Shown: positions 15,877 to 17,271, numbered from the stretch's first letter. The stretch is 64,000 bases of DNA from Escherichia phage vB_EcoM_G2540 (MK327936.1); one strand, 5' to 3'. Program-made: numbers and translations. Notes: generated by a model from the letters alone, not told the origin.

Positions 15877-16656
15877 TTAATTAAAAATATATACTTCATC
15901 AGTTCCATTCTTTTCTTTGGAATGATATATGTTAAAGACGTATTTTTTATTAAGATGCTTAACATTATATTTTTTAGACCATTCTTTAAGAAGAGTGTTT
16001 TCCTTTCCGTGATGCTCTAAAACATTCGACAGTCCAAATTTTATTCCTCTGTCATTTAAAGAATCTAAAAGATTTAAAAGGTCTTTTTCTTCTTCTTCTG
16101 ACCAAAATTTATTATAATCAGCAACTGTTATAAGATATGGAGGGTCCACATATACAAAATCGCCGTCTAGAATTTTGACATCTTTAAAATGCAATGAACT
16201 AAAGATTATTTTATCACAATTTTGTTTAAAGTGATTAAAGCGTTTTTCACTATTTTTGTTTATAGTTCTTTTTCCAAACGGAGTAGTAAAATTTCCTTTA
16301 TCGTTTATACGAATCATATTACTAAACCCGTGAAAATGAAGAACATAAAGTAAAAGAGGATCTCTAGTTTTATTATAATCTTCACGTAATTTCAAAAACT
16401 CTTCTTTTGATGTTTTTGATAGTTTATATTGCTTTATTACTTTTAATACGTCATCCCATGATACATTAATAAGACGCTTATACATTTCAATAATTGGTTC
16501 TTGAATATCATTGGCCAATACAGGACCATTGACGTTCAAAGACACTGATAAACCTCCACAAAATAAATCCACGAATCTGTCATATTTTGGAAAATGAGGC
16601 TTAAGTTCAGGTAATAATGACTGTTTATTACCTGTATACGCGATAGCTCCTAGCAT
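15877..16656 (-). CDS. dam: DNA adenine methyltransferase Dam, 259 aa
   Basis: 259 aa as in T4 Dam; catalytic DPPY motif (VYVDPPY) and FCGG AdoMet-binding region. Confidence 0.8.
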
Positions 16657-17216
16657 TATATTCTCTCATTTATTGCAGCAAAAAACGAATTATATAATTC
16701 TTCATCATATGTATTTGATAGTAATACTAACACGTTTTGTGATTTAGCATATTCATTAAACCTTGCTTGGATGGTTGGATTATCAGTAAATGATTCTCTT
16801 TTTGTCCATTTATTACGTGGATAATATCCGCATGGCAAAAAATCTAATATCATCAATGACACAGGGTTTTCAGTTTTTGTGTATTCTTTTAATTTCTCTT
16901 TATCTTCTAAATATATTCCAACCGAATCAATAGCTGTACCTCCACCAACTTGGTGTTTAATTTCAATTATATGCTTTTTACCGTTGCGAGAAATAACAAT
17001 ATCAAATCTTCTAGTACGCTTCTTAGTTATAAAATTAGAACAAAACAAATTATTTGATTTTTCAGTATCATCGGTTAAAACCATTTTTTCTTGATAACTA
17101 ACTGAACAATCAGTGAAATATTCTTTTACTTTATTAAGTATGAAATTTTCAACTACGGCAGATATTTTATATGAATCTCCGTTTAAAGCCATTTCATGCA
17201 CAATTTTATTAATCAT
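16656..17216 (-). CDS. hypothetical protein with PD-(D/E)xK-like motif, 186 aa
   Basis: candidate nuclease motif ...[18 protein letters not shown]...; stop overlaps the dam start codon (translational coupling). Confidence 0.4.
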
Positions 17217-17241
17217 TATATCATCCTCAGCAATTTATTTT

Positions 17242-17271
17242 ATAATACCATAACAAGCTGAGAAAGTAAAC
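17242..17271 (-). promoter_or_regulatory. T4-type early promoter
   Basis: plus gtaaac 17266-17271, 18-bp spacer, plus ataata 17242-17247; upstream of the nuclease-like ORF and dam. Confidence 0.5.

Follow-up and report, generated by a model that had tools for sequence, protein, structure and literature searches.

We analysed a stretch of 64,000 nucleotides (nt) from Escherichia phage vB_EcoM_G2540 (MK327936.1), hereafter the window, and focus on ORF186, an open reading frame (ORF) of 186 amino acids (aa) that lies directly upstream of the phage dam gene. ORF186 is a conserved gene whose product is predicted to adopt the PD-(D/E)xK nuclease fold of restriction enzymes, and wherever its context can be read it is paired with a Dam-family methyltransferase gene. 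Together, ORF186 and dam would form a phage-borne module resembling a type II restriction-modification system, with ORF186 cutting unmethylated GATC, a reading to which we give slightly better than even odds (a probability of about 0.55). The phage is a Tequatrovirus: over the 3.6 kb around ORF186 and dam, it shares 100% identity with Escherichia phage vB_EcoM-fFiEco06 and about 99% with many other Tequatroviruses. The elements in question are as follows.

16656..17216, minus strand: ORF186, 186 aa, ATG start; compact PD-(D/E)xK protein with a predicted restriction-endonuclease fold; phrog_8706 (function unknown)
15877..16656, minus strand: dam, Dam-family N6-adenine DNA methyltransferase (GATC), assigned from Pfam PF02086, TIGR00571 and identity to T2 Dam
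16654..16658, minus strand: TAATG, overlap of the ORF186 stop and the dam start, one shared base
17242..17271, minus strand: T4-type early promoter ahead of ORF186 and dam, with a GTTTAC -35 and an extended -10, TGn-TATTAT
17224..17228, minus strand: Shine-Dalgarno GAGGA, 7 nt before the ORF186 ATG, as read from the sequence
16950..17003, minus strand: codons of the putative catalytic core, D72 ... E85-I-K87-H88-Q89, on strands beta2 and beta3 of the model and invariant in nine homologues
17148..17150, minus strand: codon of E23, an invariant acidic residue in helix 15-33 and a candidate third metal ligand

ORF186 is a real gene under purifying selection. It matches phrog_8706, a family of unknown function, from end to end (5.7e-116), and a tblastn search finds it in 188 phage records, 154 of which cover at least 80% of the query. 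Changes between related copies are mostly synonymous (15 synonymous and 5 non-synonymous between the window and EP01, 28.5 and 6.5 between KPV15 and Lion_ER11), and the ratio of non-synonymous to synonymous substitution rates (dN/dS), drawn from unsaturated pairs, lies at 0.05-0.08 over the ORF as a whole and is similarly low for dam (0.02-0.04). An earlier examination of this DNA, made from its letters and hereafter called the sequence-only reading, had described the 186-aa ORF at 16656..17216 with an Asp followed about 12 residues later by Glu-x-Lys (here D72 and E85-I-K87), and had allowed that so short a motif could be coincidental. Both the ORF and the motif are present as described, and coincidence no longer accounts for the motif because D72, E85 and K87 are invariant, along with E23, H88, Q89 and G93-S98, in nine family members that diverge to 29% identity. 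The full set of invariant positions in this alignment comprises E23, Q42, S54, R69, D72, E85, K87, H88, Q89, G93-T-A-I-D-S98, P118, S120 and D125. A full-text literature search found no paper describing ORF186; one GenBank record (phage Shinka) labels its homologue 'putative DpnII restriction endonuclease'.

An AlphaFold2 model of ORF186, built from six homologues, is of good confidence, with a mean predicted local distance difference test score (pLDDT) of 80.3 and a predicted template modelling score (pTM) of 0.79. Its core is alpha/beta with a central mixed sheet in the order alpha-beta-beta-beta-alpha-beta, as in PD-(D/E)xK enzymes. The conserved D...(D/E)-x-K motif falls on strands beta2 and beta3, with D72 in strand 67-77 and E85 and K87 in strand 80-88, and a long helix carrying E23 precedes them. 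The comparison with restriction-endonuclease-fold proteins that the sequence-only reading had proposed as a check yields a PD-(D/E)xK nuclease fold: Foldseek matches of the model are PD-(D/E)xK nucleases only, and the best structural neighbours are orthodox type IIP enzymes, followed by Can2, McrC, BstEII, DrdV, PfoI, PspGI, Bse634I, BsoBI, NgoMIV and Cfr10I. In BFVD, the only matches were the MX01 homologue and generic viral nucleases. At the level of sequence, phmmer and a family profile run against all PDB chains gave 0 matches at an expectation value (E) of 10 or less, and NCBIfam gave no meaningful match. We infer that ORF186 encodes a compact nuclease of the PD-(D/E)xK type whose fold is MunI/EcoRI-like, and that it would be catalytically active. 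A complete restriction enzyme fits into 186 aa, since MunI is about the same size (200-residue chain). MunI/EcoRI-like type IIP enzymes (PDB 1d02) have no detectable sequence similarity to ORF186, and MunI differs further in recognising CAATTG and in its methylase partner. The invariant G-T-A-I-D-S that follows the putative catalytic lysine may resemble the G-N-A-x-E-R recognition segment of EcoRI and MunI.

These observations also bear on the idea that ORF186 is a non-catalytic or decaying remnant of a restriction gene, kept for the dam ribosome-binding site in its 3' end. Its 186 aa fall short of the ~288 aa of DpnII enzymes, its Pfam score lies below the threshold, and T4 does well with the 3' remnant alone. 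Yet dN/dS stays at 0.05-0.08 over the whole ORF, about 150 phages carry intact full-length copies, the putative catalytic residues are invariant between lineages that are 29-43% identical, and the model is that of a complete, MunI-sized nuclease fold, all of which makes a remnant very improbable.

The second line of evidence is the linkage to dam. The dam product matches the Pfam D12 methyltransferase family (PF02086, 6.5e-51) and TIGR00571 (1.4e-69), and is 100% identical to T2 Dam (record M22342) and 97.7% identical to T4 Dam; its closest homologues in a large protein database are all phage Dam genes. The TAA stop of ORF186 (16658..16656) and the ATG of dam (16656..16654) share one base, in a stretch reading ...AGA ATA TAA TGC..., which bears out the overlap at 16656 that had been claimed, and this TAATG arrangement would couple the translation of the two genes. 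In every family member with a readable context, that is, in the window and seven other lineages, the ORF186 homologue sits directly upstream of, and co-oriented with, a D12 Dam-family gene. The linkage spans Tequatrovirus, Dhakavirus, Jiaodavirus and four divergent metagenomic lineages, with the following junctions.

Window and MX01: overlap of 1 nt
Klebsiella Jiaodaviruses KPV15 and Lion_ER11, and metagenome locus L026: overlap of 7 nt; different locus, between rIIB/denB and topoisomerase
Contig P0006: ORF186 homologue directly abuts dam
Contig P0009: overlap of 4 nt; partner 63.5% identical to the window Dam
Contig P0011: overlap of 35 nt; among the most distant members
Contig P0014: overlap of 20 nt; among the most distant members, with the pair at a different locus

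T2 is the only case with a gap (13 nt) between the two genes. Ranked by identity, the lineages come in the same order for ORF186 and for Dam (64/76%, 43/63% and 37/55%, respectively), and thus the two genes were inherited together. Adjacent and co-oriented nuclease and methyltransferase genes are the arrangement of type II restriction-modification systems, and the nuclease-plus-methyltransferase pair suggested by the sequence-only reading gains support from the predicted fold, the invariant residues and this linkage.

The family is very small, and all members found come from T4-like phages. When 1.84 billion representative proteins were searched with a profile, only 11 were recovered, all of them family members, fragments or artefacts (P0016 being an artefact of repeats and P0008 chimeric), and no bridge to a known family emerged. 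Two loci were found in IMG/VR and three in JGI metagenomes, and a motif scan of one genome from each of 185,579 species recovered no bacterial or archaeal homologue.

Other T4-like phages hold different genes next to dam. In RB16 and JSE, the ORFs preceding dam were considered as related nucleases and set aside, having no Pfam match and no profile similarity to ORF186; that of Krischvirus JSE (L035, 1061-1492), which has 143 aa and an unknown function, shares its last base with the first of the dam start codon and shows the same overlapping layout. Klebsiella phage KP179 (L016, 492-2792) carries a different pair at the Jiaodavirus locus that holds the KPV15 homologue: a 210-aa ORF with a D...DVK motif and a weak match to Hjc resolvase (7e-4) overlaps the gene of a second D12 methyltransferase, which is annotated as MjaIII-like and followed by Dam. 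T4-like phages could here have another nuclease-methylase pair, unrelated to the first.

Within Tequatrovirus, the promoter, ORF186 and dam form a cassette of 1.45 kb that is polymorphic between genes 56 and 61. Its surroundings and boundaries are as follows.

15298..15831, minus strand: gene 56, dCTPase
17513..18541, minus strand: gene 61, primase
17316..17516, plus strand: ORF66, 66 aa, hydrophobic
15857..17304: promoter-ORF186-dam cassette, extent as an indel relative to Tequatroviruses without it, e.g. NBEco003
17331..17350, minus strand: terminator-like hairpin and T-run downstream of gene 61, a consensus match only
17284..17291: left 8-bp direct repeat, ATCACAAA in minus-strand reading, bounding the T4-type deletion
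16736..16743: right copy of the 8-bp repeat, ATCACAAA, bounding the T4-type deletion

Three states of this locus were found. The whole ORF186-dam stretch is carried by about 148 of the 183 records with this dam allele (by all counts, both genes occur in about 148-154 phage records), while the other ~35, T4 included, have dam and only the last ~28 codons of ORF186. Hundreds of the 719 records that share the flanking genes have neither; in NBEco003, for example, BLAST places about 20 bp between gene 56 and ORF66 where the window has 15857..17304. Among the 188 phage records that match ORF186, none has ORF186 without dam, and the ~150 full-length copies all have dam downstream. Co-occurrence in related phages, another of the checks that had been suggested, thus came out as ORF186 never without dam immediately downstream and dam sometimes without ORF186. 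This asymmetric dependence, in which the methylase occurs alone and the nuclease never does, is characteristic of type II restriction-modification and is what an active nuclease in need of protective methylation predicts. The sequence-only reading had also considered the pair unexpected beside an orphan phage Dam; on the contrary, among close dam alleles the pair is the majority state, and the orphan dam of T4 is a deletion derivative.

A polymorphic cassette between conserved genes may recall the seg/mob homing endonucleases of T-even phages, and ORF186 might instead be a homing-type PD-(D/E)xK enzyme that, during co-infection, cuts the empty 56/61 intergenic site, or a place nearby, in cassette-less relatives and spreads by recombinational repair, with dam carried along or protecting the donor site. 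In Jiaodavirus and in the P0014 contig, however, the same pair lies at a different locus, so that what is conserved next to ORF186 is Dam rather than a target site. Furthermore, the known T-even homing enzymes have GIY-YIG or HNH domains, whereas ORF186 has no such Pfam match and a predicted PD-(D/E)xK fold, with orthodox type IIP enzymes as its best structural neighbours. We consider a selfish homing element improbable.

T4 lacks 540 bp of the window (16744..17283), a segment flanked by two direct repeats of 8 bp of which T4 keeps a single copy; we therefore attribute the T4 state to a microhomology deletion of 548 bp. The loss took the early promoter at 17242..17271, the ribosome-binding site and the first ~158 codons of ORF186, leaving codons ~159-186. 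Because T4 retains this remnant of ORF186 coding sequence, the event is a deletion in the T4 line. A 1988 paper on T2 dam reportedly described a 536-bp insertion in T2, 5' to dam, with no detectable homology. T4 Dam, regarded as a solitary 'orphan' methyltransferase, is the same methylase at the same locus between genes 56 and 61, its solitary state being derived by deletion with ~28 ORF186 codons left upstream, in contrast to the full pair of the window. The annotated T4 'potential promoter P(E)17.40' (X01416 613-641; T4 ~2990-3090) straddles the deletion junction, with its -35 to the left of the junction and its -10 inside the ORF186 remnant, and may be a by-product of the deletion.

Upstream of ORF186, an early promoter had been placed at 17242-17271, and counts of the phage motif agree with this placement. 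More specifically, the minus (early-gene) strand of the window has 18 sites of the form GTTTAC-N17-19-TAnn[AT]T, whereas the plus strand has 2 and shuffled sequence would yield 1.3, a strong strand bias; the site at 17271..17242, which reads GTTTACTTTCTCAGCTTGTTATGGTATTAT, belongs to the 18. T2 conserves this site, and Dhakavirus MX01 has it in a variant form. A generic sigma-70 scan of the region stayed at chance level (18 found, 18.7 expected) and does not single out this site. The early promoter and the hairpin that follows gene 61 suggest that ORF186 and dam are expressed as their own, insulated early transcription unit. The 18 minus-strand copies (e.g. 63707, 63060, 58854, 14941, 7626 and 2447) also provide a map of candidate early promoters in the window.

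The GATC specificity that we propose draws on the methylase partner and on a remote likeness to the DpnII family (Pfam PF04556), whose members, such as DpnII and MboI, cut unmethylated ^GATC and are partnered with DpnM-type methylases. The partner of ORF186 is likewise a D12-class Dam-family methyltransferase. The PF04556 profile has 278 positions, a gathering threshold of 23 bits and bona fide members at ~350-365 bits; sub-threshold matches were obtained for 4 of the 9 ORF186 family members, always on profile positions 143-235, and the PADLOC type II model REase_II gives a similar picture (9e-5). For comparison, 842 ORFs were extracted from 80 bacterial loci with Dam-like genes found in a genome scan. 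Ranked by a hidden Markov model (HMM) of the ORF186 family, the first four of these (E 0.003-0.13) are all bona fide DpnII-family enzymes (Pfam E ~1e-108, just downstream of the methylase), while the fifth such enzyme in the set ranks 97th. In reverse, the DpnII HMM ranks ORF186 first among the 247 ORFs of the window (E 5.8e-4). In the hhalign alignment of the two families, E23 pairs with E149, which is invariant in the DpnII family, D72 with D198, E85 with E211 and the GGGT loop with SGGSK, and K87 faces N213. The shared core thus consists of an acidic helix residue, RFD-[IF]-VI, [IV]-IE and a GGG-[ST] loop. The differences are also clear: DpnII has ~288 aa and ORF186 186, without the N-terminal ~140 residues or the C-terminal region; the catalytic motif is a canonical E-x-K in ORF186 and E-x-N ... 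GSK in DpnII enzymes; the nuclease gene precedes the methylase gene with overlapping codons here, whereas the methylase gene comes first in the bacterial DpnII loci examined; and ORF186, unlike bacterial DpnII systems, is carried by a virulent phage with hydroxymethylcytosine (hmC) DNA. ORF186 is probably a remote relative of DpnII reduced to its core, and not a member as defined by Pfam.

Plasmid neighbours of Dam-like genes were tried as DpnII seeds and dropped, all those inspected being AlwI-family or FokI-type enzymes, or a second methylase with a hypothetical protein. In the window itself, an ORF at 23457..24218 (minus strand) matches the DpnII-family HMM in its C-terminal half, weakly and without significance (E 0.029), probably by chance.

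From these elements we propose the following mechanism. Host RNA polymerase would transcribe ORF186 and dam early from 17271..17242, and ribosomes ending ORF186 would restart at the overlapping dam ATG, so that methylase is made whenever nuclease is made. Dam would methylate the adenine in GATC, including the GAT-hmC of phage DNA, and ORF186, a probable homodimer, would cut GATC lacking N6-methyladenine (m6A). The targets would be DNA marked by neither Dam, with co-infecting or superinfecting T-even genomes, mostly without dam, as the leading candidate. It is established that T2 and T4 Dam methylate GATC (the T4 record is so annotated). The DNA of phage dam mutants lacks m6A even when the host is dam-plus; T-even genomes that lack dam should therefore be unmarked as well. 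Since most Tequatroviruses are without dam, rival phages would be the most attractive target. On the strongest form of this proposal, ORF186 is an active enzyme that has evolved to cut m6A-free GATC in the hmC or glucosyl-hmC DNA of rival T-even phages, and Dam is the immunity half of a phage-versus-phage weapon or of a selfish cassette spreading in co-infections; so specific a claim we regard as rather doubtful.

Several findings weigh against ORF186 as a GATC-cutting partner of Dam. A substrate for a classical GATC enzyme is not obvious, because E. coli DNA is Dam-methylated and the glucosyl-hmC of T-even DNA blocks most type II enzymes. The likeness to DpnII is limited to ~90 residues of the catalytic core: the PF04556 scores of the window ORF (16.8 bits) and of the best family member, P0009 (22.5 bits), remain below the gathering threshold, and hhalign aligns 99 columns with a P of 0.0022 and a probability of only 12.9%. 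As ORF186 lacks the N-terminal ~140 residues of DpnII enzymes, recognition specificity is not confidently transferable. Few truly independent evolutionary events underlie the rule that the nuclease gene never occurs without the methylase gene. T2 and T4 have a run of five Ts where the window and most relatives have six, and in T2 this 1-bp slip changes the C-terminal residues, leaves an ORF of 181 aa and uncouples dam by the 13-nt gap; strict coupling is therefore dispensable in at least this laboratory strain, and the classical T2 strain may carry an impaired ORF186 allele. Finally, GATC is the most under-represented of the 256 tetranucleotides in the window (62 observed, 209 expected, ratio 0.30), and the ratio is about equal in T4 (0.36, positions 1-50000) and in the cassette-less NBEco003 (0.35). 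The idea that GATC depletion tracks the cassette was consequently rejected; depletion is consistent with a lineage-wide pressure and does not point to ORF186 as its cause. GATC avoidance in enterophages is said to have been attributed to Dam and MutH in earlier work.

The abundance of methylated GATC in the host would also suit the opposite polarity, in which ORF186 cuts Gm6ATC in the cytosine DNA of host or plasmids, phage Dam tops up the target and glucosyl-hmC spares the phage, an enzyme like DpnI in function and not in fold. The Dam-methylated chromosome would be an obvious and abundant substrate, degradation of cytosine DNA is a known trait of T-even phages, and the predicted nuclease fold and Dam linkage fit. 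On the other hand, a phage Dam would be needless in Dam-positive enterobacteria, so that phages with ORF186 only would be expected, and the 188 records include none; moreover, the weak similarity of ORF186 is to the methylation-blocked DpnII and not to DpnI-type enzymes. A methylation-dependent nuclease is, in our view, unlikely. ORF186 could also have a role in repair or recombination, as a MutH-like nickase or a structure-specific nuclease that reads GATC methylation for strand discrimination or to process replication intermediates, although we find this distinctly improbable.

Cleavage of unmethylated GATC, the reading that we prefer, has precedents among viruses. Chlorella virus PBCV-1, with R.CviAI and M.CviAI, and phage P1, with EcoP1I, carry a nuclease together with a protecting adenine methylase as proposed for ORF186 and dam, and CviAI targets GATC and is blocked by m6A, as ORF186 would be. 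Both CviAI and EcoP1I have been characterised by experiment, and host DNA is degraded by the chlorella enzymes. Here, host DNA is already Dam-methylated and phage DNA hypermodified, and therefore the target must differ from that of the chlorella systems.

Type II-like pairs of nuclease and methylase, sometimes virus-borne, are already known. What is new is a minimal, phage-restricted enzyme family, the overlapping order of nuclease gene before methylase gene, residence in a virulent hmC phage, and the origin of the T4 orphan Dam as a deletion derivative. At 186 aa, ORF186 also adds a very small branch, restricted to phages, to the proteins with a restriction-enzyme fold. Among solitary phage methyltransferases, T2/T4 Dam is the textbook example; it has been studied since the 1960s, is non-essential and has no settled role. 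That the common state of this dam allele is a coupled pair with a restriction-fold gene recasts Dam as the protective half of a nuclease/methylase module, and the ORF186-dam pair makes the purpose of T-even Dam testable. Should ORF186 act on hmC DNA, it would represent a rare case of a virulent phage restricting its relatives and could be a useful enzyme for modified DNA; should rival phages be its target, this would explain the role of T-even Dam and might contribute to the GATC depletion of Tequatrovirus.

ORF66, next to the cassette, runs in the opposite direction to all the surrounding genes. Its ribosome-binding site, AAGGAGG, is strong, its stop overlaps the gene 61 stop by 4 nt, and it matches phrog_2024 (1.6e-31). 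It is also found in phages without the dam cassette and is therefore not a part of it. The ORF is intact in T4, yet unannotated in AF158101.6, and in phage Lutter an annotated promoter feature of 8 bp upstream of it is probably a late promoter.

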